DNA of 64,000 bases from an uncultured Acidobacteriota bacterium (GCA_963757335.1 CAVWRJ010000021.1:256853-320852); one strand, 5' to 3'. Positions 1,508 through 51,200 are shown, numbered from the stretch's first letter. Translations and numbers: made by a program. The notes: generated by a model not told the origin, from the letters alone.

Positions 1508-2277
1508 TGGTACCCGGACGCTCGATCGAAATCTTGGAAGACAAAGAGTCGCTGACCCGCGCGGCGGCGGCCGCTCTTACCGCCCGCGCGGCGACCGCCG
1601 TCGCCGCGCGCGGCGTCTTCACCCTCGTCCTCTCCGGCGGCTCGACCCCGCGCGATCTCTTCGCTCTCCTGGCCGATCCGAACGAACCGTTCCGCACCCG
1701 CCTGCCGTGGCAGAAGATCCACTTTTTCTGGGGCGACGAGCGCCACGTCGCTCCCGATCATCCCGACAGCAACTACCGGATGGCGAAAGAGGCGATGCTC
1801 GATTCTCTGGAGATCCCGGCTGCGAACGTCCATCGCATCCACGGCGAAAACCCCGACGCTGCTGCCGCGGCGGCCGACTACGAGAAAGAGCTGCGGACGT
1901 TCTTCCAACTCGAAGCGGGAGGGAGTGGAATCCTGCCGCGCTTCGATCTCGTGCTTCTCGGTCTCGGCCCCGAGGGCCACACGGCGTCGCTCTTCCCCGG
2001 CTCGCCAGCGCTCCACGAGCGCGAGCATTGGGTCGTCGCGCCGTGGGTCGAAAAGTTCAACACCTTCCGCATCACCCTGACCCCGCCGGTGCTCAACCGC
2101 GCCGCGGCGGTGCTCTTCCTCGCCGCCGGCGACGAGAAGGCCGACGCGCTCCACGCCGTGCTCGAAGAGGTCGGCGACGCCGATCTCTACCCCGCGCGCA
2201 TCGTCCGGCCCGAGGAAGGCGACCTCCTCTGGCTGATCGATCGCGCGGCGGCCAAGAAGCTGTCCGCGAGCGTCTGA
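1507..2277 (+). CDS. pgl: 6-phosphogluconolactonase
   Basis: LSGGSTP and GLGPEGHTASLFPG motifs of the DevB/Pgl family. Translationally coupled to zwf. Confidence 0.9.
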   Translation: MVPGRSIEILEDKESLTRAAAAALTARAATAVAARGVFTLVLSGGSTPRDLFALLADPNEPFRTRLPWQKIHFFWGDERHVAPDHPDSNYRMAKEAMLDSLEIPAANVHRIHGENPDAAAAAADYEKELRTFFQLEAGGSGILPRFDLVLLGLGPEGHTASLFPGSPALHEREHWVVAPWVEKFNTFRITLTPPVLNRAAAVLFLAAGDEKADALHAVLEEVGDADLYPARIVRPEEGDLLWLIDRAAAKKLSASV

Positions 2278-2441
2278 TTCCTTTTTAGTTCCGTTCGGGG
2301 ATGCGCTGCCGACTTTCGCCGGCAAGCTCGTTTCAGGGAGTGGGGTACCGCGGGGAGTTTCTTGTACCGGAGGGCGACACGAAAGGGGCTGCTGGTCTTT
2401 CGAGCCGCCCTCTCTCGAGAGGGCCGCTACTTCCGAGCTAC

Positions 2442-2807
2442 TTACTTGGCGGACTTCTTCGCGGCCGTGGTCTTCTTGGCCGCGGGCTTGGCAGCCACGG
2501 TCTTCTTGGCCGCTGCGGGCTTGGCCGCCGCGGTCTTCTTAGCAGCCGCCGGCTTGGCGGAGCTGGTCTTCTTAGCAGCCGCCTTCGGAGCAGCAGCCTT
2601 CGGAGCAGCAGCCTTCGGAGCAGCGGCCTTGGACGCCGCCGCTTTCGGAGCCGCACTCTTTTTGGCAGCAGCGGCCTTCGGAGCCGCGGTCTTTTTCGCC
2701 GCAGCCTTCGGCGCAGCCTTGGGAGCCGAGGCTTTCTTTGCGGCCGGCTTGGCCGCGGTGGTCTTCTTGGCGGGGGTCTTCGAAGCGCTCTTCGTTGCCG
2801 TAGCCAT
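2442..2807 (-). CDS. histone H1-like / AlgP-like lysine-alanine-rich nucleoid protein
   Basis: 121 aa, almost entirely KAAAPKAAA/AAKK repeats. Encoded by tandem 9-27 bp DNA repeats at 2460-2760. Confidence 0.55.
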   Translation of the reverse strand: MATATKSASKTPAKKTTAAKPAAKKASAPKAAPKAAAKKTAAPKAAAAKKSAAPKAAASKAAAPKAAAPKAAAPKAAAKKTSSAKPAAAKKTAAAKPAAAKKTVAAKPAAKKTTAAKKSAK

Positions 2808-3172
2808 GATCTCTCCTTTCGATCTTTTGCCCAGTCCACTGGGCGATGGGTATGGCGCCGAGGTTACGCCACAAGATCTAGGGTGTCAAGAATTTCCGTA
2901 CTCCAGGAGTGGTATGGCGCAATCGCGCCGCAACATTGGCGGCTACCGCAAGGCGTTGGGTGAGGCATGAGGAGCGAGTCAGCCATCTTGTGGCGAGGGT
3001 GAGGCTGGCCACTCAAGGACGAGGTGAGGTGCGAGAAAAGCGAGGCGGAATGGGGGTTTTGGCGCCGTCGCGGTTCTCGGAAGAGAGGTCCTCGCGAGCG
3101 GCCTCTGGTGCTGAGGCTTCACGAACCGCGCGAGCGTTCTAGACTGGAGGCGAGCTTTTCCGAGGTCCTTTC

Positions 3173-3649
3173 ATGAGAAGCCAATTTTTCTGCCGCACCC
3201 TCTTTTTGGTGGCCGTGACCTTCTCGTGCGCAAGGCTGGGTGCTGCTTTGACGCAGCGCACCGCGGCCTCCGATCGTCAGGCGCTGGTCGCGCTCGAGAC
3301 CGAGTGGGCCGTCGCGCACGACGCCGCGACCCTCGACCGCATCCTCGCACCCGACTTCATCCACCCAGTATCCGCGGGGGTTTTCCTGACCAAGGCGGAG
3401 CATATCGACTGGGTGACGAAGCATCTTCCGTCGGCGGATCGCAAGCTGCGCTTCGACCGCTTGGACGTTCGGCTGTACGGCGATGTCGGGATCGTGACCG
3501 GCATGGTCGTGGCGAGCGATGGAGGAGGCAAGGAGTTGGATCGGAGTGTGTTCACCGACGTCTTCGCCTATCGCGAGGGGCGGTGGGAGGCGGTCAATGC
3601 TCAGGAGAACCGGGTGGAGGGGCGGGGGCGAAGAGAAGGTCCTATCTGA
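3173..3649 (+). CDS. SnoaL-like/DUF4440 (NTF2 fold) protein with signal peptide
   Basis: Hydrophobic N-terminal signal followed by an NTF2-like fold pattern (WAVAHDAATLDRILAPDF...YGDVGIVTG...YREGRWE). Confidence 0.5.
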   Translation: MRSQFFCRTLFLVAVTFSCARLGAALTQRTAASDRQALVALETEWAVAHDAATLDRILAPDFIHPVSAGVFLTKAEHIDWVTKHLPSADRKLRFDRLDVRLYGDVGIVTGMVVASDGGGKELDRSVFTDVFAYREGRWEAVNAQENRVEGRGRREGPI

Positions 3650-5486
3650 CGATTTCCAGATGGGGCAAGCCCTCCACCGGAGAAAAATCGGAAACCCGGG
3701 TTGGGTAGAGGATGAGTCTTTGCAGAGAGCTGAGTCCTGCGAGAGGCGCGAGGTCTGAGACTTCGGTTCCGGAGAGGTAGAGCTGTTGCAGGGAGCTGAG
3801 ACCTGCGAGAGGCGCGAGGTCTGAGACCTCGGTTCCGGAGAGGTAGAGCTGTTGCAGGGAGCTGAGTCCTGCGAGAGGCGTGAGATCTGAGACTTGACGG
3901 GCTAAGAAGAGGTAGAGCTGTTGCAGTGAGGTGAGTCTTGCGAGAGGCGTAAGGTCTGAGACCTCGGTTTCGGCGAGGTAGAGCTGTTGCAGGGAGGTGA
4001 GTCCTGCGAGAGGCGCGAGGTCTGAGACCTGGGTTCCGGAGAGGTCGAGCTGTTGCAGGGAGGTGAGTCCTGCGAGAGGCGCGAGGTCTGAGACCTGAGT
4101 TCCGGCGAGGTCGAGCTGTTGCAGGGAGGTGAGTCCTGCGAGAGGCGCGAGGTCTGAGACCTCGGTTCTGGAGAGGTCGAGCTGTCGCAGGGAGGTGAGT
4201 CCTGCGAGAGGCGCGAGGTCTGAGACCTGGGTAAAGGAGATGCTGAGCTGTTGCAGGGAGGTGAGTCCTGCGAGAGGCGCGAGGTCGGAGACCCCGGTTC
4301 CGGAGAGGTCGAGCTGTTGCAGGGAGCTGAGTCCTGCGAGAGGCGTGAGATCGAAGATCTGCGACCTTATCCCGTCATGCAGGTATCCACCCATCAAAAG
4401 CCTTCTCTGTACTTCGGGTAGGATCAGCGGATTAAATGCCTGCGCCAGCTCCGAGAGTACCGTGACGCGCTTTTCAGAAGAATACCCCTCTAAGGCTAAG
4501 CGCGCCTGAGGCGTTCCGATCAGACGCAGAGCGCGGACGCACGCGGCTGCCTGCCGAGCAGAGAGACCTTTGCTGAGTTGCAGATAAGGCACCATGACAT
4601 CGCCACCAGTCGCAAGGTCTTCAGCATCTCCCATGCTGGTCGGTGGGAAGAGTTCCTGCGCGAGTCCCTCGATCCGCTGTTCGAGATCTGGTCGCAGGAA
4701 GAGGGCCGCAGCGCGGCAGCGAAGGGCGAGGAGTTGCAGAGTACGGCGAGAGGTTGGCGCATTTCCGAGAACGGGTCGTCGCCCTTTCCCCATAGGTGCA
4801 CGATCCTCTGTCGCGAGGAGCCGTTCGACGATATCGCTCGCGAAGCCCTGCTTCTTCGTCGTCACCGCGAACAGGATGACCCTCTGCCACGTCGGATCGA
4901 GCGCCTGCTTAGCCAGCCGGCCCGCATCGCCGGCTTCTGCGAATTTCTCGGCACCAAGGAATTCCTTGAAGGTGTTGTGGATGAAATCAAGCGAGCCAGG
5001 TCGGGCCTCCCGCAGCATGCCGCTGCGCTCGACTAAGCTGCCCAGGACCTCTCTCGATTCCTCTTCGGCATGCCCGGGGAACTGCCGGAGGACCTCAGCA
5101 ACCTTCAGGCGGGCACGTTCGTAGGCCACCGAAGACTCCTCGTTCTCGACCATGTAGTACGCCAACTCCCGCACGATCGCCCTCTTCTGCTCGTAGCTCA
5201 AGCACCGGTAGCTCTCCGGAAATTGACTGAGGTCGAGCCCGCTCTCGCGCTCGCGGCGGTGGAGCAGCATGTGGCAGAGGGCTTCGCACAGCTCGGCTTG
5301 GCTCTCCGGCAGCTTCCGGTGCCGGTCGCGATGGAGGGCGCAGATCATGGCGCAGAGGAGCGGGTTTGTCGCCAGCCGTGCGATGGGCGGGTTCGCGGGC
5401 AGTTGTAGTTTGAGCCTCTTCGGCAAGCTGGCCGAAGTCCTCCGCCTTCTTCCCGATCCGGCGGAGCTCTTCGGCAACGGCTTCAT
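3642..5486 (-). CDS. NLR-like STAND NTPase, C-terminal fragment (NACHT helical module plus leucine-rich repeats); same gene as 5095..6147 and 6041..6784, separated by apparent frameshifts
   Basis: NPLLCAMICAL motif of the post-NACHT helical region, followed by about 10 tandem 22-aa LRR units LSGTEVSDLAPLAGLSSLQQLY. Confidence 0.7.
   Translation of the reverse strand: MKPLPKSSAGSGRRRRTSASLPKRLKLQLPANPPIARLATNPLLCAMICALHRDRHRKLPESQAELCEALCHMLLHRRERESGLDLSQFPESYRCLSYEQKRAIVRELAYYMVENEESSVAYERARLKVAEVLRQFPGHAEEESREVLGSLVERSGMLREARPGSLDFIHNTFKEFLGAEKFAEAGDAGRLAKQALDPTWQRVILFAVTTKKQGFASDIVERLLATEDRAPMGKGRRPVLGNAPTSRRTLQLLALRCRAAALFLRPDLEQRIEGLAQELFPPTSMGDAEDLATGGDVMVPYLQLSKGLSARQAAACVRALRLIGTPQARLALEGYSSEKRVTVLSELAQAFNPLILPEVQRRLLMGGYLHDGIRSQIFDLTPLAGLSSLQQLDLSGTGVSDLAPLAGLTSLQQLSISFTQVSDLAPLAGLTSLRQLDLSRTEVSDLAPLAGLTSLQQLDLAGTQVSDLAPLAGLTSLQQLDLSGTQVSDLAPLAGLTSLQQLYLAETEVSDLTPLARLTSLQQLYLFLARQVSDLTPLAGLSSLQQLYLSGTEVSDLAPLAGLSSLQQLYLSGTEVSDLAPLAGLSSLQRLILYPTRVSDFSPVEGLPHLEIVR
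3712..4345 (-). repeat. about 9.5 near-identical 66-bp tandem repeats encoding the LRR units
   Basis: Direct reading: gagctgttgcagggagctgagtcctgcgagaggcgcgaggtctgagacctcggttccggagaggta recurs with 0-4 substitutions per unit. Confidence 0.9.
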
Positions 5487-6147
5487 GCCACTTTTCGATA
5501 AACCGGGCGCGGTCCAAACCGGACAAGGGATTGACCCGTGCGTCGCGAAAGCCTTCGCTGGCCAACCAGCCCGACGGCACGCCCAAAGGGCGCGTGCTCA
5601 CCAGGAGGTAGTTTCCCGGATAGGCGCGGACGATGGCCGAGATCTCGTTGCCGACCGTAGTGCGGTGGGCATTGGGTACTTCATCTACACCGTCGAAGAG
5701 CAGGAGAGCGCGGCCCGCCCGCAAGACCGAGAGCACCCACTCTGCTGGCGGAGTGCCGATCTCCTGGGCGATGAGTTCGGGGAAGTCGTCAGGCTTCGGG
5801 AGTCTCCCGGCCTGGCAGTCGCGGAGACGGATCAGGAACGGGACACACGAGCGCCAGCTGTGTTCGGCCGTCTCCGATAGGGAGGATCGCCGGTTCTTTC
5901 CTTGAGCCGCCTGGATCGCGATCCAGCGGAACAGTGTGCTCTTGCCGCTTCCGGCCTCGCCGCGAAGCACCAGCCGGCCGGCTCCTGGCGCAAGGCTGTC
6001 CAGCACGGACTCTACGGGTGCGGATTCTCCCTCGCTTTCCTCAGTGTCCTGAGGACCGGTTTCCAACTGAAGCGAGATGGAGGCGACCGTCAGGGCTCTT
6101 GCTCGAATCCGGCTGAATGTCGACACCGAAGAGCTCAAGAAAATCAA
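5095..6147 (-). CDS. NLR-like STAND NTPase, NACHT P-loop fragment
   Basis: Walker A GEAGSGKSTL, Walker B LLLFDGVDEV, then winged-helix-like region. Frame breaks relative to the flanking fragments at about 6041-6147 and 5400-5486. Confidence 0.7.
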   Translation of the reverse strand: MIFLSSSVSTFSRIRARALTVASISLQLETGPQDTEESEGESAPVESVLDSLAPGAGRLVLRGEAGSGKSTLFRWIAIQAAQGKNRRSSLSETAEHSWRSCVPFLIRLRDCQAGRLPKPDDFPELIAQEIGTPPAEWVLSVLRAGRALLLFDGVDEVPNAHRTTVGNEISAIVRAYPGNYLLVSTRPLGVPSGWLASEGFRDARVNPLSGLDRARFIEKWHEAVAEELRRIGKKAEDFGQLAEEAQTTTAREPAHRTAGDKPAPLRHDLRPPSRPAPEAAGEPSRAVRSPLPHAAPPPRARERARPQSISGELPVLELRAEEGDRAGVGVLHGRERGVFGGLRTCPPEGC

Positions 6148-6784
6148 GGTTTCGGATAACCTCCAGCCGGTAGTCGGACTCGTACTTCTGATTCCCGGGA
6201 TCGCGCTCCTGCGTCGCCACCCAGGCTTCGATGTGCTCGACCCGGCGGGCGGTCTGTTCCACGATATCGCCGAGATGGCTGAGGCGCTTCAAGCTCTCGG
6301 CCACGGCAGCCTTCTCGAAGCGGGGGAGCTGGGCCGCGATTTCGACCAAGTAGCGCACGGCTTCCGCCAGCACTCGGTCGTAGAACTCCTCTTCCGCGGC
6401 CGAGAACTGACCCTGGGGAAGGGGGCGCGCGGCGCGTAGCTCGGCAAGAAGCTTTGTCGGATCGAGATCCTTCCCGACGAGAACCTCCGGCGAGATCTTG
6501 CCGTCGAGGGTCGCCTCGACCTCGGCCGTCACGGCCGCGACAACGATACCGCCATGGTTGTCGGCGTCCTCAAAAAGAGGGAGGAGCTGGGCGGCGATGC
6601 GTTCGCCGAGCCCCTCGAAGACTCGGGAGGCGTCACGCCGGGCAAAGAGGCTCTCGATCTGACCCTTACCGATGTCGGTCAGATCGTCGCCGAACACCTC
6701 GCCTGGCCGGCCGAGGTAGGTCTTGAACAGGAACTTGGCGAGGCGCGTCCCTAACTTGACGAGCAGGGTCTCTGAGAAAGCCAC
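6041..6784 (-). CDS. NLR-like STAND NTPase, N-terminal all-alpha domain of unknown type plus pre-NACHT linker
   Basis: Putative GTG start at 6784 preceded by AGGGGGA. C-terminal YRLEVIRNLDFLELFGVDIQ matches the conserved pre-Walker-A segment of NACHT proteins. The ORF track extends to 7258 through the 42-bp repeats, which are probably non-coding. Confidence 0.5.
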   Translation of the reverse strand: MAFSETLLVKLGTRLAKFLFKTYLGRPGEVFGDDLTDIGKGQIESLFARRDASRVFEGLGERIAAQLLPLFEDADNHGGIVVAAVTAEVEATLDGKISPEVLVGKDLDPTKLLAELRAARPLPQGQFSAAEEEFYDRVLAEAVRYLVEIAAQLPRFEKAAVAESLKRLSHLGDIVEQTARRVEHIEAWVATQERDPGNQKYESDYRLEVIRNLDFLELFGVDIQPDSSKSPDGRLHLASVGNRSSGH

Positions 6785-7044
6785 GAATCCCCCTGTACGA
6801 TGACGGGTGTATGCGACTGCGAGCGAGCAGCCCCGCCGTTCCACGATGCCGGACTTGTCAGCCACATTATGTACTGAGATCACTGGAGCGCAGCGAAGGA
6901 CTCGTCGGGGAAGCGCCGCACCCCCGCCCAGATCCTTCGCGGTGCTCAGGATGACGGTAGGAACGGTCGGCGCGAACCACACCGGGATCAGAATCCATCC
7001 GTTGAACACACTACGGTAGCGTTTGGGCGCTGAGCGCCAGGCGG

Positions 7045-7214
7045 CGGTCGCTGTCCCTCGGCTGGCGACGATCGCGAGCTTAGCGGGAATCGCTGCCCTT
7101 CGGCTGGCGACGACCGCGAGCTTAGGGGCAGTCGCTGCCCCTCGGCTGGCGATGATCGTGAGCTTAGGGGGAGTCGCTGCCCTTTGGTTGGCGATGACCG
7201 TGAGCTTAACCCAA
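7045..7214. repeat. 42-bp tandem repeat array, left part (4 units); each unit has a C(UUCG)G-type hairpin
   Basis: Units tcgctgcccttcggctggcgacgaccgcgagcttaggggcag; continues on the far side of the IS at 9214-9345. Confidence 0.85.
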
Positions 7215-7273
7215 CTTCCACGCTTTGCGGCATAAAGTATTGAGCCATAAGGATCCACAGTTGACTTTCGTCA

Positions 7274-8350
7274 CTATTCTGGGTTGGGCAGCCAGGTTTT
7301 GACGGGGGCCATGACCTCGTGGGGAATGCCGAGGGTGTCGTAGATGAGCTGATGCTGCTTCTCCGGATTCGTGCCTTTCCGGATCCGGAGAAGTTGACCA
7401 CATGGCGTCGGCAGCACTGCGGTGACCACCTGGTGGGTGGAGAGCTGCTGGCGCAAGGTCGCCCACGAGGTGTGTATCTTTTTCCGCAGAAAGCTGGTCT
7501 CGATCGAGATCAAGAGGTGATAGGCCAACACGCAGAGAAAGATGTGGGTCTGCACTCGGTTCTGGAGCTGATGGAAGATCGGGCGTTCCCGGAGCGGACT
7601 TTTGAGATCGCGAAACGCATTCTCGACTCGGGTCAATAGAATGTAGATCCGCCAAGCCTCTTCGGTGTCGAGATCCTTACGATCCGTTTTAAGCAGATAG
7701 GCGCCATCCATGCGAAGAGCCCTGGCCTTGGCCTCGGTCTCTTCTTGCCAGATCAGCTTCCAGGGGCCAGGATCGAAGCTGAGCCGGTAATACCGGGCCA
7801 CACGAGGATAGCGCTCCTTCAGGCGGCCGATGGCCTCATAGACTTGCGCTTCCCCGATCCGTTTCTTGGCAACTCGCGCCTGGAGACGATCCAGGTCAGC
7901 CAGGAGGCGCTTCTCCTGTTTTTCGCGAATCGCCCGATCCTTGGCTTGGCGCCCCTCGCTTCGACACAGAATGTAGAGATGATCGGCGGTCTCGAGCCGT
8001 TTGACCCAAACCTGGGACTTTTTCTGCGCCGGGTTGTCGGCGAGGGCTCTCGCAGGACTTCCTGCCAGCCCTGCTCTTGCTCGAGATCGTCGAGCCATTG
8101 CAGGCGCTCCGATTGACGGCAGGCAACCACGTAGTGATGGCCGCAGGCTTGAATCTGCTGGAGATTTTCGTCGAAGGCCATGCCACGGTCCACGATCACC
8201 GTGCCTCCACCCTTGCGCCCAGTACGTTGCTCCAGGATCTGCAGCATCTCGTCGACCGACGATCGGTCTTGGCGATTGCCATCGAAGACCTCGTGGGCCT
8301 TGGGAAAGCCTTCCCGGTCGAGCACTAGGCCGATGACGACCTGTTTGCAA
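7274..8350 (-). CDS. IS1634-family transposase, C-terminal portion; frame differs by a 1-nt indel in a C homopolymer near 8040
   Basis: Sequence after about 8030 (VWVKRLETADHLYILCRSEGRQAKDRAIRE...) continues the transposase. The junction gagccctcgccgacaac needs a 1-nt change to restore the frame. Confidence 0.7.
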   Translation of the reverse strand: MQTGRHRPSARPGRLSQGPRGLRWQSPRPIVGRRDAADPGATYWAQGWRHGDRGPWHGLRRKSPADSSLRPSLRGCLPSIGAPAMARRSRARAGLAGSPARALADNPAQKKSQVWVKRLETADHLYILCRSEGRQAKDRAIREKQEKRLLADLDRLQARVAKKRIGEAQVYEAIGRLKERYPRVARYYRLSFDPGPWKLIWQEETEAKARALRMDGAYLLKTDRKDLDTEEAWRIYILLTRVENAFRDLKSPLRERPIFHQLQNRVQTHIFLCVLAYHLLISIETSFLRKKIHTSWATLRQQLSTHQVVTAVLPTPCGQLLRIRKGTNPEKQHQLIYDTLGIPHEVMAPVKTWLPNPE

Positions 8351-9117
8351 TCAGGTCGCTGATCGCGTGAATAGCCGCGTCGGGCTTGAGGATTGCTCTC
8401 GCATTTGCCCTCGAAGTAGGTCGAGGTCAGATCGTAAAGGTAATAGCTGTCATCCAGATTGAAAAGACTTTTCTCCCGCTTCGCCAGAGCCGCCTCGATC
8501 TTGCCTCGGTTCGGGTGCAGGCGATCCAGATTGCGATAGAGGGCTTCGTCAGTGAGCTCCCGCAGGTCCACCCCCAAAATATCGCCCAGCGCCGTGCGCC
8601 GGACCCAATCCGGCATTGCATGTTCCGAGCACGGAGCCACCAGGCGATTCAAAACCATGACCTCGGTGAGACGCCGAGCCTTGGGCGAAAGGCCCACCTC
8701 AAGCAGAGTGTCGTCGATTCCCAGACGCAGCCACATTTGGTGGCCCACATGGACAGGTCCCGCCTCGCGCGCCTCTTCCTGGCGCAACTGATCCGTGTGC
8801 ACGGACACGAGATCCTGGCGGTTGGTCGCGGTACGGACACGGTTCACAACCTCGGTGACCAACGGGGCCTGAGCCCTCAGCGAGGTTTGCCCCGCAAGCG
8901 CCGCCTCGACTTGGCCGATCAGGCCCGGCCACTTGCTCTTGGGCCCCGGCGACAGGGGACCCTGTGAGCACAGGGTCCGGAGTCGCTGCCCCTGAGGAGT
9001 GGTCACCGTCTCCACTACCAGGTAGTTGGTGTAGGTCTTGTCCTTGTACCGCTTGACGGTCTTGCGGATGAACACAAGGCTTCTATACCAGAAACTCGAA
9101 GGCCCTGGTTTCGTCAC
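7819..9117 (-). CDS. IS1634-family transposase, N-terminal portion
   Basis: KDKTYTNYLVVETV...QRLRTL N-terminus, YDLTSTYFEG (first DDE Asp region), and RGYSRDQRPDCKQVVIGLVLD are typical of IS1634 transposases. Confidence 0.75.
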   Translation of the reverse strand: MTKPGPSSFWYRSLVFIRKTVKRYKDKTYTNYLVVETVTTPQGQRLRTLCSQGPLSPGPKSKWPGLIGQVEAALAGQTSLRAQAPLVTEVVNRVRTATNRQDLVSVHTDQLRQEEAREAGPVHVGHQMWLRLGIDDTLLEVGLSPKARRLTEVMVLNRLVAPCSEHAMPDWVRRTALGDILGVDLRELTDEALYRNLDRLHPNRGKIEAALAKREKSLFNLDDSYYLYDLTSTYFEGKCESNPQARRGYSRDQRPDCKQVVIGLVLDREGFPKAHEVFDGNRQDRSSVDEMLQILEQRTGRKGGGTVIVDRGMAFDENLQQIQACGHHYVVACRQSERLQWLDDLEQEQGWQEVLREPSPTTRRRKSPRFGSNGSRPPIISTFCVEARGAKPRIGRFAKNRRSASWLTWIVSRRELPRNGSGKRKSMRPSAA

Positions 9118-9213
9118 TATTTCCGTGAATCGGCGATCCCGCCTCTCGAAGAATCAACAACTTACAGCCACGAAGCCACCGAAATCGGCCTCCTCGGAAC
9201 CGGAGACTGTGGA

Positions 9214-9345
9214 AGTTGGGTTAAGGGCAGTCGCTGCCCTTCGGCTGGGGACGACCGCGAGCTTAAGGGCAGTCGCTGCCCCTCGGACGGCGACTACCGC
9301 GAGCTTAGGGGGAGTCGCTGCCCTTCGGGTTCGGACGCCCAGGCG
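9214..9345. repeat. 42-bp tandem repeat array, right part (about 3 units)
   Basis: Same unit as 7045-7214; starts immediately after the right-hand TTAA of the IS. Confidence 0.85.
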
Positions 9346-9626
9346 GCTGCACTGGTCGGGCGGTGTGAAGGTTTCGGTGAGTCGTGAGCAGCGCGCGGAG
9401 GTCATCCGGCGCCGCACGGGACGCGTGAAGAGGGCGGCTAGATGAGGGAGGTTTTACTACCGCGAGCTTCCCCCCTCCTTTCCTCCCCCTGACCCAACCG
9501 CCTCCCGCCCAGGGGGGAGAGACGCGAGATCGAGGCGTTCGTGGGCTTGGCCAAGCGGCTGGAAGTGCGAGTGGGCCGGCGCCAGTTCTCCAAGGAAGTG
9601 CAGGGCTTGCTGGTCTCCGGGGGGTT

Positions 9627-9860
9627 CTAGAATTTCGGCAGCAACCCGGACTGGACGAGGTCACGCTGCTCGACGGACATCGTCGGGATCTCCTGGCCGA
9701 GTTGCTGGTACGCCAATACTATCTCGTGGAGGGCGTCCCGGAGCATCGCCCGGCACTCTTCGATCGTGCCCCCCTCCGTGACCACCTCGGGCCATTCGAG
9801 GAGCTGGCCTATGTACCCGGAATCGATCTTCGCGTACCTCGCCGTATAGCTCTGGAGCAC
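9627..9860 (-). CDS. HicB-like (UPF0150) antitoxin-domain protein, no HicA partner found
   Basis: YTARYAKIDSGYIGQLLEWPEVVTEGGTIEECRAMLRDAL fits the HicB N-terminal fold pattern. No HicA-like ORF in any frame of the flanks. Confidence 0.4.
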   Translation of the reverse strand: MLQSYTARYAKIDSGYIGQLLEWPEVVTEGGTIEECRAMLRDALHEIVLAYQQLGQEIPTMSVEQRDLVQSGLLPKF

Positions 9861-9912
9861 CGCTCCTCCCTTCTTGTGCGGAACCGATTGTACTCCGGCG
9901 GAGGGGAGCGTC

Positions 9913-11341
9913 TCAGTACGCGTTCAGCCGCATCGCATGCCGGAAGGTCATCCAGAGGATCTTGAAGTCGAGCCCCAGCGACCAGTTCTCGATGTAGTAG
10001 AGGTCGTACTGGATCCGCTTCTTGATCGAGGTGTTGCCGCGCCAGCCGTGGACCTGGGCCCAGCCGGTGATGCCGGCTTTCACTCGGTGGCGGAGCATGT
10101 ACTGGGGGATCTTGTGCTTGAACTCGCGGACGAAGGTCGGGCGCTCGGGGCGGGGACCGACGATCGACATGTCGCCGACCAGGACGTTCCAGATCTGCGG
10201 CAGCTCGTCGAAGCTCCAGCGGCGGAGGAAGCTTCCCACCCGGGTGCGGCGGGGATCGTCCTTGACCGCCCAGACCGGGCCGGAGCTCGCTTCGGCGTCG
10301 ATCCGCATGGAGCGGAACTTCAGGATCATGAAGCTCTGGCCGTCGAGCCCCATCCGCTCCTGGCGGTAGAAGATCGGCCCGCGATCCTCGAACCAGATGG
10401 CGAAGGCGGCGAAAGGGAAGAAGGGGAGGAGCACGAGGTGCGCGGCGAGGGCGATCGCGATGTCCATCCCCCGCTTCACGAGGCTGTTCCAGCCCTGGAG
10501 GGGGACCTGCGAGAGGTTGATGACCGGCGTGCCGTCCAGATCCTCCAGGGTGGCTTTGAGCGTCGCGTACTGGAGGATGTCCGGCACCAGCTTGGTCTCG
10601 ACGCATTCGCGGGCCATCAGCTGCAGCATCGAGAGGGTCTTCTTGTGCGCCTCGATAGGGAGGGCCATGTAGACCTGGTCGATCCGCGTCTCCGCCAGGA
10701 CCTCCTCGGCCTGCTTGAGAGTCCCGAGGACCGGGACGCCGCAGACGAGGGTGCCGGCCTTGCCGGGGTCGTCGTCGAGGAAGCCCACGACGTCGAAGCC
10801 TGAGACCGCGATGGGCGAGGATCTTCTGGGTGATCTCGCGGCCGAGGGTGCCGGCGCCGATCACCAGGATGCGCTGGAGGTTGAGTCCCAGGAGCCGCGA
10901 GCGGCGGGCGGCGAAGCGCAGGACCATGCGGATCGCGCCGACGGAGAGGAAGTCGGCGAGGGCGAAGATCCCCAGGAAGGCGCGGCTGTAGGTGAAGTAC
11001 TCGGTGCTCCCGGGATAGACCGGCGGCCGGTACCAGGCGATGACCACCGAGAGGAGGACGGTCGCCAAGAGCACCGCCACGAAGAGGGTAAGGATCTCGT
11101 CGACCCGGCTTCGCCCCCTGCGGCTCTGGTAGAGCCCATGAAAGTAGAAGACGACCGGCCACAAAACGAGGACGATCGGCACCAGTCTTAAGTAGGGGGT
11201 GAACTCCGGGACGTTCTTGGTGACCGGGATGATCGCCATCTCGAAACGCAGGAGCCAGGCGCCTAAAAAGGCGGCGAGGGTTCCCAGGAGATCTCCGGCC
11301 AGGTAGAGGCCGGCCGTCATGCGATGGCGTTGGCGGATCAC
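9913..11341 (-). CDS. undecaprenyl-phosphate sugar phosphotransferase (WbaP/EpsB-like bacterial sugar transferase); 1-nt frameshift near 10803
   Basis: N-terminal TM helices and VIGAGTLGREI Rossmann segment in one frame. The FLDDDPGK...catalytic domain (PQIWNVLVGDMSIVGPRPERP) is in a second frame. Removing one a in ctcaggcttc restores GLGFDVVGFLDDDP. Confidence 0.85.
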
Positions 11342-13788: not shown

Positions 13789-14934
13789 CTAGTCTAGCGC
13801 CTCGGCGAAGACCTCCGCCATCTCCCGCGCCGCCTCTTCCCAGCGGAAGCGGGCGGCGCGGAGGACGCCGCGCCGGGAGAGGTCGGCGGCGCGGGCCGGG
13901 TCGTCGAGGATCTTCTTCAAGCGCGGCGGCCAGGCCGTCGGCGTCGTGGGGGGCGACCTGGAGCGCGGCGTCCCCCACCACCTCGGGCAGGCTCGACGCG
14001 CTGGAGACGACGGTCGGCACCCCGCAGGCGAGGGCTTCTAACGGCGGCAGGCCGAAGCCTTCGTAGAGCGAAGGGTAGGCGAAGGCCCGCGCCCCCTGGA
14101 AGAGCCGGACGAGGCGGTCGTCGTCGACCCGGCCGAGGGAGCGGACGCCGCCGTTCGAGAAGTTCGAGAGCCGCTCGATCCGGGCACGGAGGGCATCGTT
14201 GTGCCAGCCGGCGCCGCCGGCGAGGAGGAGCGGCGGGGTCGCCGGGTCTTCGCGGCGGAGCGCCTCCCAGGCGGAGAGGAGGACCGAGACGTTCTTCCGC
14301 GGCTCTAGGCTCCCGAGATAGAGGATGTAGCCCTCCGGGGTCCCGAGCTCCCGGCGGATCGCCGCCACCTCCTCCGGAGAGCCCGGAGCGAAGACCGGGT
14401 CCACCCCCTCGTAGACCACCCGCACCCGGGAGGCGGAGGCCGGGAAGTGGAAGGCGAGGTCGGCCGCGGTCGCCTGGGAGACGGCGACGATCCGCCGCGC
14501 CCGGTCGAGCGAACGTTCGAGAAAGGGGAGGATGCTCAAGCGGACCTTGACCGTGTGAGTCTCGGGATAGAGGAGGGTCGTCAGGTCGTGGATGGTGACG
14601 ACCGAAGGGAGCGCCCGCACCTTGGCGGCGAGGGGAAGGGTCATCAGGGGCGACCAGAAGAGGTCAACGTCCCCCCGCGCCAGCCGCCGCGGCAGCTGCA
14701 CCTGCTGCCAGATCACCCCCAGTGGCGCCGCTTGCACCTCGATCGCCACCCCCGCCGCCTCCAGCTCCTCTGCTCCTCGGGGAGGCTTGTGGCAGAGCCC
14801 GAGAAGCCGCGGGCCATTCGCCTGCTTGGCGAGAGCGAGGAGGAGATTCCGGGTATAGACGGAGATCCCGGTCGGTTCCGGCACCAGGGCGCGGAGGTCG
14901 ACGGCGAGGGTGGGCCGGGAGGCGCTCGGCATAG
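13789..14934 (-). CDS. glycosyltransferase family 4; frameshift near 13925
   Basis: IHDLTTLLYPE...YPSLYEGFGLPPLEALACGVPTVVSSASSLPEVVGDAALQV. The true C-terminus ...RFRWEEAAREMAEVFAEALD is in a second frame. Confidence 0.8.
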
Positions 14935-15261
14935 GGCGCGTCGGCTCGGCTACGAGAGTGCCGCTTCGAGGTCTTCCGGGGTGAGAATCAGCAGAGTGGC
15001 TTCGCGCAATACATTCGTGCCGAAGAGAGCTTTCAAGAATGCTTCCGCTCAAGGTAGCGGTAGTAATCCCATTCGTCCACATCCTTCAAGGAACCCAGAA
15101 GCTCCCGAGTCTTAGGTGGCAGCTCTTCGGATTCTGTCTCGGAAGGGTGCGCCCAGCGCTTGCCGAAACGGATCAGATCCTCGTCCAGCCGCAATGTGAG
15201 CTTGGATGACATGGGCTTCCTCCTCCAGACGTACCGATCTTAAAGGATTGTACGGCGGAGG

Positions 15262-17520
15262 TCACCCGTTGCTCCGGACCACCCGGTAGATCTCCTCCGC
15301 GCCGTCCCGGTAGATCGGCTGGAAGCGGCCGGGGTGGGAGAGGATCCAGCTCCGTTGCGGCTCCTCGCCGCCGGAGAGCCGGATCACGAGATATTGCACG
15401 TTCAAAACGGTGAGGATGCGCCAGAAGCGGCGGAACTCGGGGTAGTCGAAGGGGAACTCGGCGCTCCCGCCGAAGCGGTAGTACTGCGCGCGGAGGTCCC
15501 AGGTCGTGGGGACGATCTGGACGTCGTTCTGGAGCCGGCTGCCGAAGAAGAGGTAGGGCTGGTTGAAGGCTAGGTAGCCGACCGTGGCGCCCAGTGGACC
15601 CGCCGCCTGCTCCAGGGCGAGGGCGGCCGGCCGGTCGCGGAGCTTCAGGCGCTGGTAGGTGTCGATCCCCCGCGCCAGCCGGGGCGTCAGGAGGAGGAGG
15701 ACGGCGAGTCCGGCGATGGCGAGGACGGTCACCTGTCCTTCGTGGCAGCCGGCGAGCGGCGGCGCGGAGCCGTTCCCGCTGGGTCACGAGGATTGCGGCG
15801 ACGGCTACGAGGGCGAGGGCGAGGAGAGTCTTGCGCCGGTAGTCCAGGCCGATCCAGTTCTCGACCGGCGGGAGGAAGAGGAGGAGGCCGAGGAGGATCG
15901 CACGCACGGCGGCTCCGGCACCCCGGACCCGATCTTCCAGCCGCTCGGTCAGCCAGGCGAGGCCGACGGCGAGGAGGCCGAGGCCGGCGAGCCAGTAGCG
16001 GAGGTCCCGGTGGTCGTCCATCAGCTCCATGAATTCGAGGAAGAAGACGAGGGGGAGGGTGAGGACGATTGCCGCCTCCAGCCGGCTTTCCCGAGCGGGG
16101 GAGCCCTCCCGCCTGGCCGGAACCGGCTCCGTTGGTTCCTGCGGGCGGTCTCCTTCGGGCGCTTCGCGCAGCCAGTCGCCCGTCCTCGGAAGCCAACGGA
16201 GCCGGTCCCGGCCGGGCCCCCCATCCCGGCGCTGCCAGAGGAGCCTCGCGAGGGCGAGGAGAGGCGCCAGGAGAGCGGCCGGGAGCAGGGTGTAGGGGAA
16301 GAGGGGGCCGAAGAGGTCGGCGCGGTGGGTCAGGTAGGTCCAGACGTCGAAACGGAAGCTGTCGCGGGTGCGCCGGTAGGCGAGGGTCGCCGAATCCCAG
16401 CCGGGGAAGATCTCGTGTCCGAGGAGGCGGAGGGGGGCGGGGAAGAGGGGGTTGCCGGCGGTCCAGGCGTTTCGCAGGTAGGTGTAGCCGCCGGCCAGGA
16501 GGGCGACTCCGGCGAGGGTTCCGGCGAGAGCGAGGAGGCGGCGCCGGCCGGCGCCGTCGGCGAAGAGCGCTCTTCCCTCCGGCTGGGCGAGGAGGAGGAC
16601 GAGGAGAGCGAGGACGATCGTCGCGGCGTAGAAGAGGCCGATGTACTTGGTGCCGACGAGGAGCCCGAGGGCGAGGCCGGTGAGGGCGGCGCGGCCGGCG
16701 GTCGGTTTGCGGCTCGTGGCGAGGGCGCCGTCCAGGGCGGCGAGGGTGAGAAAGGCGGTCGTGTGGTCGTTGCCGGCGGTGAAGGCGAGGAGGGGGAGGA
16801 CCCGGAAGATCGAAGCGTAGAAGAGGGGGGCGAGGGTGGCCGCCCGGCGCGACAGACCGAGCCGCCGGCCGAGGGCGGCGAGGGCGAGGAGGGAGGCGAG
16901 GGCGAAGGGGAGCTGGGTCCAGCGGGCGGCGAAGTCGCTGTCTCTAAAGGGCGCGAGGAGCGCCCAGGACCCGATCTCGGCGAGGATGGGATAGAAGGGC
17001 GTGCTCCGGTCGCCGAAGTCAAACTTCATCATCCGCAGGTCGCCGTGCCGCATCCAGGTGGCGACCGCCGCCATGTGGTAGGAGGCGTCGTCCCCCCCGA
17101 AGGCCCCCACCGGCTCGAAGCGCAGCTGCCACGCTATATAGAGGACGGAGACGGCGAGCGCCCCGGCGGCGGCGAGGACGAGCGCGGTCTCCGCCTGCTC
17201 GATCCAGGTGAGGGAGAAGACCCCCTCTTGAGCGGGGGCCTCCGCCTCTCCAGGTTTCGTCCGGAGAAAGGAGGTCGCGAGGGCGATGCCGGCGATCGTC
17301 AAGAGATACCAGGTGGGCCGGAGCAGGCCGAAGTGGCCGAGGAGGATCGCCGGCAGCGACCCCACGGCCACGGCGACCATGAAGCCGGCGACGGCGGTCG
17401 AGAGCGGCCCCTCCCCTCGCCCACCCGCGGCGAGCAGCCGGCGGGCGATCCGCCAGCCGGTGACCCCCAGGGCCAGAAGGAGGGCGAAGAAGACGAGGAG
17501 GTCGAGCCAGCGGGCGGGCA
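15262..17520 (-). CDS. GT-C fold membrane glycosyltransferase (GT39/GT83 ArnT/PMT-like); frameshift near 15735; carries an in-frame copy of the dispersed palindromic element
   Basis: At least 10 predicted TM helices. TGLALGLLVGTKYIGLFYAA is an ArnT/PMT-like segment. The C-terminal soluble domain sits in the frame of ORF 15262..15732. Confidence 0.6.
16117..16211 (+). repeat. dispersed palindromic element (copy 2 of 4), in-frame inside the GT-C gene
   Basis: Arms ccggaaccggctccgttggttcc / ggaagccaacggagccggtcccgg flank the conserved core. In the gene it is translated as ...GPGRDRLRWLPRTGDWLREAPEGDRPQEPTEPVP... Confidence 0.8.
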
Positions 17521-17591
17521 TGCGGGGGGGATTATCGCCGAGCCCCCATTCTCTTGTATCGTTCCCCCTCGACCGGGCCCTCCCAAACCGA

Positions 17592-19355
17592 ATGCGAATC
17601 CGCGCCACCCACGCCGTCTGCCTGTCCGTCGCGCTCCTCGGGCTCGCCCTCTCGCTCTACAAGATCCACTTCCCGCCCGGGCCGATGGCCGACGAGGCCG
17701 CCTACGTCATGATGACGGAGAGCCTCTGGCACGACCACGACCTGACCTACGACCACCGGGATCTCTTCCGCGCCTACGAGCTGTGGGACCAGGGGCCGAA
17801 CGGGGTGGTGCTGTCGACCAACGACGGCGGCAAGACCATGCACTACGGGAAGCCCTTCGTCTACTCGGCGGCGGCGCTGCCGTTCTACGGCCTCTTCGGG
17901 GTGCAGGGGCTGGTCGTCTTCAACATGGCGCTCTTCCTCGCCATGTTCTGGAGCGGCCTCTGGTACTTGAAGGACGAGGAGGGCTATGTCGGCCTCTATG
18001 TGGCCGGCTTCTTCTTCGCCTCGGTCTCTTTCGTCTACGTCTTCTGGATGCAGCCCGAGGTCTTCAACATGGCCTGCATCTTCTTTCCTCTCCTCTTCTG
18101 GCAGCATCTCCGCCGCCGGGGGGGAGAGGAGCGGCCGCGCGACCTCCTGCTCCTGGCGTTCGGCGGGGCGCTCGTCGCCGCCGCCTTCGTCTCCAAGGAG
18201 ACCGCGGTCCTCCTGGGGATACCGATCGGGCTCGACCTCCTCTGGCGCCGGCGCTTCCGTGCCCTCCTCGCCTATGCCGCCCCGGCGCTCCTCGCCCTCG
18301 CCCTCCTGGCCGGCACCCAGCACCGGCTGACCGGCTCCTGGAGCCCCTACCGCGGGGTGCAGCGGCGGTCGTTCGAGAGCCAGTACCCGATCGAGAGCCA
18401 CAAGGACATGTGGGCGCTCTACCGCGGCACGAGCTTCGGCTCCTGGTCGGGCCTCGGCATCCAGGCCACCCCGCGGATGCTCGCCTACGACACCGAGTAC
18501 TTCCTCCTCGGCCGCCACACCGGGCTCCTCCCCTATTTCCCCTTCGCCCTCTTCGCCCTCGGGCTCTACCTGGCGGGCCCGAAGCGGGACCTCGGGCGGA
18601 ACCTCCTCCTGCTCTCGATTTTCGGCTACTGCCTGGCCCTCGTCCTGTTGCGGCCGGACAACTACCACGGCGGGCTGGGGTTCCTGGGGAACCGCTACTT
18701 CGCGAGCATCTACCCGGCCCTCCTCTTCCTTCCCGGCCGGATGCGGGCCCGCAAGAGCCTCGTCCTCCCCTTTGCCGCCGCCGGGCTCTGGACCCTGGCG
18801 GTGATCGCCGTGCCGACCCAGGCGATCACCCCCGAGGCGACCCTCCAGGCGCACGTGCGGGTGAAGGCGTTCCAGGCCCTGCCGCTCGAGCTCACCCTCT
18901 TGAACAAGATCCCCGGCTACTTCCTCCGCGGCTGGGGGGACGGGGTCTGGGTGGTGCCGAAGGAGAACTTCCTCGCCGACGAGAGGAACCCCAACGGCGT
19001 CTGGCTGCGGGGCGCCTCGCGCTCCGAGGTCATCCTGGTGACCGCGGCGCCGGTCTCGGTGATCCGCTTCCGGGTCCACTCGCTCTCGGACGTCAACGTC
19101 TTCACCGCGGAGAGCGGGATCGACCGCATCCGGGTCGCCTTCGACACCGACGCCAAACGCCACGGGACGCCGATCGACCTCCAGGTGAAGCCGGTCGCCC
19201 GGGACCTCGGGTTCTTCGGCGACGCGGCGCCCCACGAGTACTTCTACCGCTTCTACCTGACGACGACCGACGGGGTCGTCCCCGCCCACCGCATGGGGGG
19301 GGACGATCAGCGCTATCTCGGGACGTTCCTCGACTTCACTGGGAAGGGGCCGTAG
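17592..19355 (+). CDS. polytopic membrane protein, putative GT-C-like glycosyltransferase or polysaccharide-assembly protein
   Basis: 588 aa with at least 10 hydrophobic helices and a C-terminal soluble beta-rich region. Divergent from the GT-C gene. Confidence 0.45.
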   Translation: MRIRATHAVCLSVALLGLALSLYKIHFPPGPMADEAAYVMMTESLWHDHDLTYDHRDLFRAYELWDQGPNGVVLSTNDGGKTMHYGKPFVYSAAALPFYGLFGVQGLVVFNMALFLAMFWSGLWYLKDEEGYVGLYVAGFFFASVSFVYVFWMQPEVFNMACIFFPLLFWQHLRRRGGEERPRDLLLLAFGGALVAAAFVSKETAVLLGIPIGLDLLWRRRFRALLAYAAPALLALALLAGTQHRLTGSWSPYRGVQRRSFESQYPIESHKDMWALYRGTSFGSWSGLGIQATPRMLAYDTEYFLLGRHTGLLPYFPFALFALGLYLAGPKRDLGRNLLLLSIFGYCLALVLLRPDNYHGGLGFLGNRYFASIYPALLFLPGRMRARKSLVLPFAAAGLWTLAVIAVPTQAITPEATLQAHVRVKAFQALPLELTLLNKIPGYFLRGWGDGVWVVPKENFLADERNPNGVWLRGASRSEVILVTAAPVSVIRFRVHSLSDVNVFTAESGIDRIRVAFDTDAKRHGTPIDLQVKPVARDLGFFGDAAPHEYFYRFYLTTTDGVVPAHRMGGDDQRYLGTFLDFTGKGP

Positions 19356-48273: not shown

Positions 48274-51200
48274 CTGCGTCCCGTCCATCTCACCGTCGAG
48301 GGTCTCGCGTGCTTCCGGGAGAAGCAGGAGATCGACTTCCGCACGCTCGAGCTCTTCGCCATCTCGGGGCCGACGGGAGCCGGTAAATCGACTCTCCTGG
48401 ACGCGATCACCTTTGCGCTCTATGGCGAGATCCCCCGGGTCAACCATCAGAATCGGACCGAGATGATCTCGGCGGCCCGCGACCGGGTCACCGTGGTGCT
48501 GGATTTCGACGTCGGCGCGAGCCGCTACCGGATCGCACGGACCCTCAAACGCAATGGGGCGCAGATGGTTCGCCTGGAGGAGCACGACGGGGTTGGCGGC
48601 AAGGGCTCCAGGAAGAATCTGGCCGACCAGGTTCGTACCGCGACCGATCAGATGGTGCGGATCCTCGGGCTCGGTGCGCCGGCGTTCCTGCAAGCCGTGG
48701 TTCTGCCGCAAGGCGAGTTCGCGAGGTTCCTCCGAGCGCAACCGAGAGACCGGCGCAGCATGCTCCGCACGCTGCTTCGACTCGACGTCTACGAGCGGAT
48801 GCGGGAACGGGCGCAGCGTTCGGCGGCGGCAAAGAAGGGCACGGTCGATTCGCTTCTGAAGCTCCTTGCGGACGAGTACGCCGGCATCGACGAGGCCGCT
48901 GTTGCCGACCTTGAGACGGAGCACGCCCGGGTCGCCCGGTCGCTCGAAGCCGCGAGAAAGAAACGGGACGACATCCAGGCGACACTCGCCCGGCAGCGCG
49001 GCCAGCACGCGAAAACTCGCGAGCTTCGAGAGGTCGAAGAGAGGCGAGCCGCCCTAGAGAAGCAGGCCGAGCAGGTGAGCCGTGAGCGAGCGAGGATCGA
49101 GGCGGCGGCCCGGGCGGTGCCCCTGTTGCCTCTGCTCCAGGAAGCGGCCCGCGCCGCCGCCGCCGCGAAGACGGCGACCCAGGCGGCAGACGTTGCCAAG
49201 GCCCACCATGACTCAGGAGAGATGGATTGGCAGAAGAAGGCTGGCGCCCAGAAGTCAGCGGAAAAGGCCGCCCAAGCGATCCCGACGATTCGTGAGCAGG
49301 TGGCTCGCCTCAACCAGGTGCTCGGTCGGCTTCCTGAACGAGAGCAGCTCCAAGCGGCGATCGAGCGACAGACGCAGGGTGTCAAGGCTCTCGAAGTCGA
49401 GCTGTCCGCGCTCGCTTCGACGGTTGAATCGGCGAAGGCCGTGCAAGCGCAACAGCAGAGAGCCGTCGATTCGGCTCGGCAAGCCGCGGCGGCCGCCGGC
49501 TATGACCCGGAGCTGGACGCGCTCTTCGGAGAGTGTCCGCGACCGAGCGGTCGAGCTTGGCGCTCTGCGCCGGAGCGCTGCCGAGCGCGGCCTTCCGCTC
49601 GCTCGGCAGCGTAAAGCGGTGGAAGAGCAGGCTGGGGAGATCGAGCTGCGGAAGGAGAAGGCGGAGTCTGCCAGGAGGTCCGCGGAGGAGGCCCAGCGCG
49701 GCTTCGAGGCAGCAGAGGAGGCGCTCTCTCTCGCCCACCGCCTGAACGAGGCCCATCACCTCCGCCAGGGGTTGGTTCCCGGCGAACCCTGCCCGGTGTG
49801 CGAACAGCTCGTGGAAACACCCCCTCCGGCCGATCCGGTGCCCGAGCTCGAAGCTGCCAGTGCCGCGCTCCAAGGGGCGCGGGAGAAGCGGAAAGCGGCC
49901 GACGCGCTCGCCCGGCAGATCGAGGCTCTCTGGACGGGCGAACAGGCGAGGCTCCAGGCCGCTCGGCAGAGCCTCGCCGAGCTGGAGGAGCGCTGCGCCG
50001 AGCTGCAAGCTCGCGTCGCCGCCGGCGAGGAAGGGATCTATCGAACGCTCGGCGACCGCGCTCCAGCCGGGGATGCGCTCATCGAGATCGGGATCGAGGC
50101 CTGGATCGAAACCCGCATCGCGGCGCTCGCCAGGAGCCGCAAGGCGAACGACGAAGCGAAGGCGCAACTGGCGACGGCGGAACGGACCCTGGAGAGAGCC
50201 AGGGCCGAGGAGGCCACCGCGCGGGATCGGCTCGGCGAGAGGGAAGCGTCGCTCAAGCGGTTGGAAGAGGAGCGCGGCAGGAGCCTCCTACGGCTCACGA
50301 CGTTGGAGGCCGAGATCCATGCCGTCACCGAGTCTGCCGATCCGGCTGCCGAGGCGAGAAGCTTGGAGGAGCAGATCCGGCAACTGGAAGCGGCCCTCAA
50401 GGCGGCCAACGAGGAGGCGGCAGCCTCCCAGAACCGACGGATGGCGGCCCAGGAGGCGCAACGGCTGACCGCCGAAGCTGCCAGGGCCGCTCGTGAGGAC
50501 GCCACAGAGAGAGCGGAGAGCCGGGATTTGGGAATTGCGCGCGCCGGCTTTGCCGACGAGGCCGCCGTCCGCGGGGCCCTCTTGGACGATGCCACCGCCA
50601 CCCGGCTCCAGGAGCAGGTCCACAGGTATGCGCAGGACCGCCACGCCGCCGAGGCGCGTGCGGCTACGCTGCGAACCGAGTTGGGGGAGGAGCGAGTGTC
50701 CGACGAACAGTTGGCGGCCGCCGAGACGCTCGCGGCGGAATGGACCACCGAAGTGGAGACCGCGCTCGGTCAGGAAAAGAAGCTCGAAGAGCAGATCGGG
50801 CGGATGAAAGAGCGGCTCGAACGGGGAAAAGAGCTCCGCCTCAAGCTGGAAGTCGAGGCGGCGGCTCTCCGCGTCTACGACCTCCTGGCCGGCGACCTGC
50901 GAAGCGACAAGTTCCAGGCGTATGTCTTAGAGGAGGTGTTCACCGAGCTGGTAGCGGGCGCCTCGGCCCGGCTGCTCAAGTTGACCGGGGAGCGTTACTC
51001 CCTGGAGTTCAACGCCGACGAAATCAAAGTCGTCGATCACGACAACGCCGACGAAACGCGGATCAGCGATACCTTGAGCGGCGGAGAGACCTTCCTGACC
51101 TCGCTGGCTCTCGCCCTGGAGCTCAGCGATCAGGTGCAGCGTGCCGTCGGCGCGGTGAATCTCGACAGCCTGTTCATCGACGAGGGTTTCGGCACTCTCG

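Follow-up and report, generated by a model that had tools for sequence, protein, structure and literature searches.

The question raised by this locus is whether three overlapping, consecutive open reading frames (ORFs) on the minus strand represent one working gene, and what kind of protein such a gene would encode. They lie in a 64,000-nucleotide stretch of DNA from an uncultured Acidobacteriota bacterium (GCA_963757335.1 CAVWRJ010000021.1:256853-320852), the whole of which is called the window here. An earlier note, made from the sequence alone, had read the three ORFs as a single NLR-type gene with a NACHT domain and leucine-rich repeats (LRRs), split by two frame changes. Our analysis bears this out. 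We consider it very likely that the locus (3642..6784, minus strand) holds one NNH1-NACHT-LRR gene of clade 4 of the bacterial NACHT proteins, that its three-ORF appearance comes from errors in the consensus, and that the gene is intact in the organism.

The ORFs (6041..7258, 5095..6147 and 3642..5486) are in three different frames. In the three-frame translation the recognisable protein runs in frame 0 as far as about 6100, in frame 1 from there to about 5415 and in frame 2 beyond. The breaks, previously placed near 6041-6147 and 5400-5486, were refined to 6096/6097, where two bases are missing (break 1, 6095..6098), and to 5416, where there is an extra G (break 2, 5415..5418). Joining the frames at 6098/6096 and 5416/5414, from the GTG at 6784 to the stop codon at 3644..3642, gave a single protein of 1046 amino acids, which aligned end to end with intact homologues and needed no gaps at the joins. 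The same GTG is the start of one of the source's own gene calls, P0121 (247 aa), which is, like P0080 (568 aa), a piece of this gene.

The repaired protein has the effector-NTPase-sensor layout of bacterial NLR-related proteins that the earlier note had proposed. The all-alpha NNH1 domain occupies residues 1-195 (6200..6784, minus strand, as are all features of the gene); its Pfam part (PF22733, 6760..6254) extends over residues 9-177 and model positions 2-174 of 177, with E 3.8e-27 and 96 bits against a cutoff of 27. The NACHT NTPase core follows at residues 271-435 (5479..5973; PF05729, E 7.9e-17, 62 bits against a cutoff of 26.7), with the Walker A motif GEAGSGKST (5961..5935), the Walker B motif LLLFDGVDE (5706..5680) and the sensor-1 motif LVSTRP (5604..5587). 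The helical, winged-helix and spacer part of the NACHT module (4368..5414), placed by homologue alignment, contains NPLLCAMICAL (5366..5334), the winged-helix motif FIH602NT604FKEF (4985..4959) and a HEAT-like stretch before the repeats. GEAGSGKST, LLLFDGVDE and NPLLCAMICAL were all found on the minus strand, as had been reported, and the earlier description of the gene is accurate well past what chance would give. The H and the N of FIHN are nearly invariant columns in a 92-sequence alignment. Judged from the conserved motif and not from a structural alignment, H602 and T604 probably correspond to H443 and S445 of NLRC4.

The C-terminal LRR sensor domain (3645..4367) was delimited with Pfam, NCBIfam and Tandem Repeats Finder (TRF). 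It consists of ten 22-residue units, in agreement with the earlier estimate of about ten, and the units follow the type LxxLxxLxLxxTxVSDLxPLAGL. Pfam LRR_4 matched six stretches at residues about 806-1040 (E 4.6e-41), while internalin-type LRRs were the sole recognised match in the NCBIfam scan of the protein. At the DNA level the array is a 66-nt tandem repeat of 9.5 copies with 89% matching (3720..4349, TRF). One unit, at 3932-3864, has 23 residues and reads LYLFLARQVSDL where the other units have LYLSGTEVSDL; it is in frame, is identical in the same-strain contig introduced below, and carries several substitutions at variable ligand-facing positions. Its explanation as a patch of three homopolymer insertions was rejected, the DNA giving no support for it, and the unit may be a real variant.

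Two further contigs were compared with the window at the breaks. L001, of 5,967 bp, belongs to the ENA assembly ERZ25039475 and covers window positions 9249..3271. L082, of 98 kb, belongs to the sister assembly ERZ25039523 and represents a syntenic sister strain, in which the order is zwf, pgl, DUF4440, NLR, UPF0150, sugar transferase and glycosyltransferases. L001 comes from the same strain as the window, as the two agree at every base on both sides of break 1, for approximately 700 bp upstream of it and 570 bp downstream. At break 1 itself the window has AAG--AGCCC, whereas both L001 and L082 have AAGCAGGCCC, which encodes K-Q-A-L. In the wider context L001 reads AAGCAGGCCCTG against AAGAGCCCTG of the window, and L082 is intact with AAGCAGGCC. 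When the two bases are restored the protein reads DSSKQALTVAYISL, which is the family consensus (KQALTVAYISL), and L001 accordingly encodes one 480-aa NNH1+NACHT protein with this same segment. The window version lacks the Q and has an S in place of a Y that is at least 90% conserved. The surrounding 127 bp (6036..6162) differ from L001 by six substitutions besides the two missing bases; three of the substitutions are synonymous, and of the three non-synonymous ones two (RLAV to RLEV, VAYIS to VASIS) depart from what the family has. The patch may be a local cluster of errors or may come from two haplotypes mixed in the consensus.

At break 2 the window reads GAAGAG[G]CTCAAA, with the extra G at 5416, and L082 is in frame, GAAGATCTCAAA (AEDLK). 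Without the extra G the protein reads AEELKLQLPANP and aligns free of gaps to AEELKRQLPENP of the homologues. Break 1 interrupts the strand that leads to the NACHT core, and break 2 interrupts a conserved helix. The extra G, as well as a private extra T of L001 (window 5464, L001 3773), lies inside or beside a GAGCTC hexamer. Basecalling errors at a methylated GAGCTC palindrome were considered as a cause and dropped as unproven; the window contains 64 intact GAGCTC sites, and two indels elsewhere, at 10801 and 12977, are not at this motif.

The selection acting on the gene was estimated from the window and L082 over 6784..5125. The ratio of non-synonymous to synonymous substitution rates (dN/dS) was 0.13, with a dS of 0.24, and 84 of the 123 substitutions fell on third codon positions. 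The reconstructed protein has zero in-frame stops. Of the 162 residues with at least 90% conservation among 108 full-length homologues it keeps 156, a value that falls inside the range shown by intact homologues. The signs of a decaying pseudogene were therefore not seen at this locus: the breaks were not reproduced in independent sequence, break 1 being absent in L001 and L082 and break 2 in L082, and there was neither relaxed selection nor loss of conserved residues.

Frame errors are not confined to this gene. At least six were found in the 64-kb window, at least four other genes being split in a like manner, and for two of these L082 has the unsplit gene. A CoA_binding_3/Bac_transf sugar transferase is divided by an extra A at 10801, CoA_binding_3 positions 3-113 and 108-175 falling on successive ORFs, and a GT4 glycosyltransferase has its halves in two frames that meet in a run of G7 at 12977, where L082 has G8. 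L082 has neither indel and both genes are intact there; conversely, zwf is split in L082 and whole in the window. The transposase of a nearby insertion sequence (IS) is also divided between two ORFs (DDE_Tnp_1 positions 18-113 and 105-198). Within the NLR gene itself L082 has four private indels at other places, and each assembly has different ones. Single-base indels that are found in one assembly or the other, in both directions and in housekeeping genes, are what consensus noise characteristically leaves. Taken together with the intact states in L001 and L082, the low dN/dS and the retained residues, they make sequencing or assembly errors much more likely than pseudogenisation as the cause of the frame breaks, which is the preference that the earlier note had expressed. 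Gene calls from this assembly are thus unreliable, and the split or truncated genes of the window should not be taken for biology without read-level support. Other sites of the same kind were noted in passing: a compensating indel pair at 13918/13767 garbles the end of another glycosyltransferase, and a GH1 hydrolase (about 44290), an SbcC-like ATPase (about 49100-49600) and a large membrane protein (15262-15783 against 15173-17608) are probably split too.

Several observations weigh against an intact gene. The extra G at 5416 is common to the window and L001, which are identical from 5463 to 3271. For that reason they are not independent witnesses at break 2, and the intact state in the strain of the window is deduced there from the more distant strain L082. 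The 127-bp patch around break 1 could partly be real strain variation. The assembly is probably a noisy, long-read one, a platform deduced from contig naming and the error pattern and unconfirmed. Finally, the LRR part of the gene and the region immediately preceding it are missing from L082, and given this loss the gene may be dispensable in the lineage. In the alignment of L082 7340-8110 with window 5081-3628 the L082 gene stops soon after ELFPP, and in place of the rest stand about 655 bp of frame-broken sequence that matches poorly. Either the sister strain has really lost the sensor or the 66-nt repeats were collapsed by the assembly.

These points bear on the possibility of a genuine, very recent pseudogene, in which one or both breaks are real, most plausibly the extra G at 5416, and which may be tied to the nearby IS. 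The G shared by the window and L001, the IS 420 bp upstream of the gene that the sister strain does not have, the loss of the LRR part in L082 and the frequent loss of immune genes in general all fit such an event. However, the shared G counts for little as the two sequences are not independent at this position, break 1 is intact in L001, and the like single-nucleotide indels in unrelated genes of the window (one of them in a G7 run) are repaired in L082, whose own zwf contains errors. Together with the absence of in-frame stops, the conserved residues and the dN/dS value this makes a recent pseudogene unlikely, and there is a small though appreciable chance that at least one of the breaks is a real, very recent mutation.

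Programmed ribosomal frameshifting, or a naturally split NLR made of separate polypeptides, could also give three overlapping consecutive ORFs on the same strand, and this arrangement is the sole point in its favour. Neither site has a slippery heptamer (AAGAGCCC, GAGGCTC), the positions of the breaks vary among assemblies of the same locus, and the breaks fall inside the NACHT-proximal strand and the conserved helix named above. The homologues are single ORFs in hundreds of cases, one long ORF being present in all 80 of the genomic loci returned, and the same two shifts were not seen conserved in several independent accurate genomes. We regard this explanation as extremely improbable.

The family was defined with residues 1-801 of the protein as the query (801 aa), searched against 5.8 billion proteins at E <= 1e-10. 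There were 898 matches, the best with 58% identity over 100% of the query, and the best matches are intact NNH1+NACHT+LRR proteins of 900-1250 aa, mostly from metagenome-assembled genomes (MAGs) of Thermoanaerobaculia, Myxococcota and Planctomycetota. The nearest relatives of the window gene are in Thermoanaerobaculia MAGs. Among species-representative genomes the family occurs in Thermoanaerobaculia, Phycisphaerae, Planctomycetaceae, myxobacteria, many actinomycetes and Ktedonobacter. An all-against-all comparison of the ORFs at the 80 loci revealed no conserved partner gene, shared neighbour families being confined to related actinomycete genomes (12 of 80), and the protein would accordingly be expected to act alone. 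With the NNH1 domain alone as the query, 851 clusters (50% identity) were matched at E <= 1e-3; of the top 150 representatives, nearly all have the start of NNH1 at residues 1-10.

The NNH domains were defined by Kibby et al., 'Bacterial NLR-related proteins protect against phage' (bioRxiv 10.1101/2022.07.19.500537), where, according to Table S1, the NNH1+NACHT+Imm-LRR architecture is clade 4 and bNACHT16 its cloned and tested example. BLASTP of the window protein against bNACHT16 gave E 2e-37 and 26% identity over 366 aligned residues spanning NNH1 and the NACHT core, the comparison covering the N-terminal 399 aa given in the supplement of that paper. The window protein has the features of the clade, namely a NACHT domain with Walker A/B and sensor-1, an N-terminal NNH1 domain, C-terminal LRRs, the winged-helix His-x-Thr, homology to bNACHT16 and a stand-alone gene. 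Judged by its predicted protein, the gene is a member of bacterial NACHT clade 4 (NNH1-NACHT-LRR, the bNACHT16 class). The earlier note had called the system Avs-like. In the PADLOC-DB 2.0 scan at E <= 0.1 no Avs model was matched, the sole match being a PtuA P-loop fragment (E 4e-4), and the NCBIfam model of the antiphage protein EruA scored 13 bits against a cutoff of 1000. Since the NTPase is a NACHT and PADLOC gave no Avs match, the proper family is bNACHT and the name Avs is kept as an analogy only. A search of the library used for literature after 2023 on bNACHT16 or NNH1 found none.

bNACHT16 of Vibrio campbellii (WP_005534681) is the closest described system. It has the same domain order and a similar size (950 aa, against 1046 aa here), and a single gene encodes all its parts: NNH1 at the extreme N-terminus, a NACHT module that carries Walker A/B and the winged-helix His-x-Thr, and bacterial LRRs at the end. 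The two differ in that their identity is low, the hosts belong to different phyla and the repeats of the window protein are internalin-like, ten units of 22 residues; moreover, there are toxicity data for bNACHT16, while the window protein is known from its sequence alone. Kibby et al. report that mutation of the winged-helix His of bNACHT16 (the equivalent of NLRC4 H443), or of the Thr two residues on, inhibits the growth of E. coli. Mutation of this His thus hyperactivates both NLRC4 and bNACHT16 according to that source, and the His is conserved in the window protein.

The more distant systems resemble the window protein in layout. In the animal NLRs NLRC4/NAIP and NOD2 a central NACHT stands between an output domain at the N-terminus and an LRR sensor at the C-terminus; unlike them, the window protein has no CARD, PYD or BIR, its N-terminus is NNH1 and its LRRs are of another type. 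Avs1-5 likewise combine effector, STAND NTPase and repeat sensor in one polypeptide with an abortive-infection output; however, their NTPases are not of the NACHT clade and their sensors are mostly tetratricopeptide repeat-like. Plant coiled-coil (CC) NLRs of the ZAR1 type, fungal HeLo/HET-S proteins and MLKL share with it an all-helical N-terminal output domain starting from residue 1 of an NLR-type switch, whereas NNH1 has no Foldseek similarity to them (best PDB E 0.8) and no evident transmembrane segment.

In the earlier note the N-terminal region of about 210 aa was described as all-alpha, unrecognised, and a putative effector of unknown nature. The all-alpha character was confirmed by an AlphaFold2 model built on 92 sequences, with ten helices, a pLDDT of 82 and a pTM of 0.79. 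The region is no longer unrecognised, being NNH1 with the Pfam match given above, and that remark holds for its biochemical activity. A Foldseek search of the model against the PDB and the BFVD viral models found no analogue (best E 0.7-0.8, TM <= 0.24), a PDB sequence profile search with 22 NNH1 sequences returned coiled-coil noise only, and phmmer of the NACHT-to-spacer part against PDB sequences gave nothing at E <= 0.01. A pore-forming bundle fold of the plant CC/MADA, HeLo or MLKL four-helix bundle type was not recovered for NNH1 in this way. The first helix is conserved and basic (consensus MxxxxxLxxxLGxxLAKxLLKxYLG). It was examined as an unusually amphipathic helix of the membrane-inserting type and this was rejected, its hydrophobic moment (0.32) being like that of the other helices; its net charge of +3 alone stands out.

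In the homologue P0100 the NACHT-LRR part is 53% identical, and residues 1-195 are swapped for an AlbA_2/Schlafen plus helix-turn-helix module, with the junction of the swap at the conserved YExDYR...LELFG segment. According to Table S1 of Kibby et al., calcineurin-like and PNP_UDP_1 enzymes precede only the C-terminal part of NNH1. The swap and these fusions of enzymes with partial NNH1 place residues 1-195 in an exchangeable effector slot. On the other side, in P0099 the NNH1-like N-terminus aligns and the PNP_UDP_1 domain is elsewhere in the protein, and from such relatives with both a full NNH1 and an enzymatic domain NNH1 might be an adaptor rather than a killing module. The only functional hint for its output is the toxicity of activated bNACHT16 in a heterologous host. 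That NNH1 is a new cell-killing executioner, toxic once clustered by NACHT oligomerisation, for instance through membrane attack, is therefore a tentative suggestion which we think rather improbable. Were it true, NNH1 would be an independently reached bacterial analogue of the plant CC and fungal HeLo outputs, and the locus one intact example of a widespread effector. The domain is common, sits in the effector position and has no structural relative, while the window gene is an ordinary member of a large catalogued class; the role of NNH1 is thus a question for the whole family rather than for the window.

The domain order, the intact catalytic and regulatory motifs, the stand-alone gene and the purifying selection are consistent with the following mode of action, which we infer from NLR biology and from bNACHT16. 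The LRR solenoid would hold the ADP-bound NACHT module in an autoinhibited state, and binding of an invader-derived ligand, or of a host factor altered by infection, would release it. The NACHT module, whose Walker A/B, sensor-1 and winged-helix His are intact in the sequence, could then exchange its nucleotide and presumably oligomerise. The NNH1 domains would thereby be gathered and might give a growth-arresting or lethal output, the population being protected by abortive infection.

Two observations speak against a role in defence. The accessible parts of Kibby et al. do not credit any NNH1-NACHT-LRR protein with activity against phage and report only that hyperactive bNACHT16 alleles are toxic, and the locus, between zwf-pgl and an exopolysaccharide cluster, is in no recognisable defence island. 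The gene could instead be intact and encode a STAND switch for kin or self recognition, for development or for a non-viral cue, in which NNH1 would be a recruiting adaptor and not a toxin. This would agree with the neighbourhood, with the lack of a PADLOC defence model match for the window protein, and with a family that is richest in bacteria of complex lifestyle (Myxococcota, Actinomycetes, Planctomycetota and Ktedonobacter); some relatives, as said, have NNH1 plus a separate enzymatic domain, and non-enzymatic N-terminal domains are classed as possible adaptors by Kibby et al. Nevertheless, phage defence is, as far as that source reports, what the bacterial NACHT proteins do that have been tested, and bNACHT16 in its hyperactive form is toxic to a heterologous host. 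The presence and content of the LRRs vary between strains and the gene is 91.7% identical between the window and L082 where the flanks are 95-98% identical, which fits an arms-race sensor, and an adaptor would find no conserved partner gene whose product it could recruit. A non-defence switch is accordingly a doubtful alternative to the defence role.

On one side the gene is flanked by zwf, pgl, a histone-H1-like protein and a DUF4440 protein, and on the other by a UPF0150 (HicB-like) protein and the exopolysaccharide cluster. The IS (7205..9225, minus strand, about 2 kb) is bounded by 26-nt terminal inverted repeats at 7205-7230 and 9200-9225 and lies approximately 420 bp upstream of the NLR start. 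Its DDE transposase is split by a frame error into 7819..9117 and 7274..8350, and the element is absent in L082, where the alignment jumps from window 9221 to 7209. The IS stretch of L001 differs from that of the window far more than the flanks do, and reads from other IS copies are perhaps mixed in. The G+C content is 61-64% over 2001-10000, against 66-72% for most of the window, and this lower value is compatible with the NLR gene, the IS and the HicB-like gene being a horizontally acquired islet. No tRNA genes marking an integration site were found in the 64-kb window.

The IS interrupts a 42-bp tandem repeat, 7047..7208 (3.9 copies) and 9221..9328 (2.6 copies) with 86-87% matching. This repeat is located in the interval from the NLR start to the HicB-like gene and contains a short internal palindrome, GTCGC...GCGAC. 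A CRISPR-like nature was rejected for this repeat, there being no spacers. The UPF0150 gene, with a HicB-like antitoxin fold (9627-9860), has the IS and repeat array on one side and the exopolysaccharide cluster on the other, and it is conserved in L082. The histone-H1-like protein (2442-2807) has 121 aa, is rich in Lys and Ala with a weak HC2 match, and is encoded by 15- and 33-nt tandem repeats; compared with L082 its gene has a 15-nt in-frame indel at 2610-2624.

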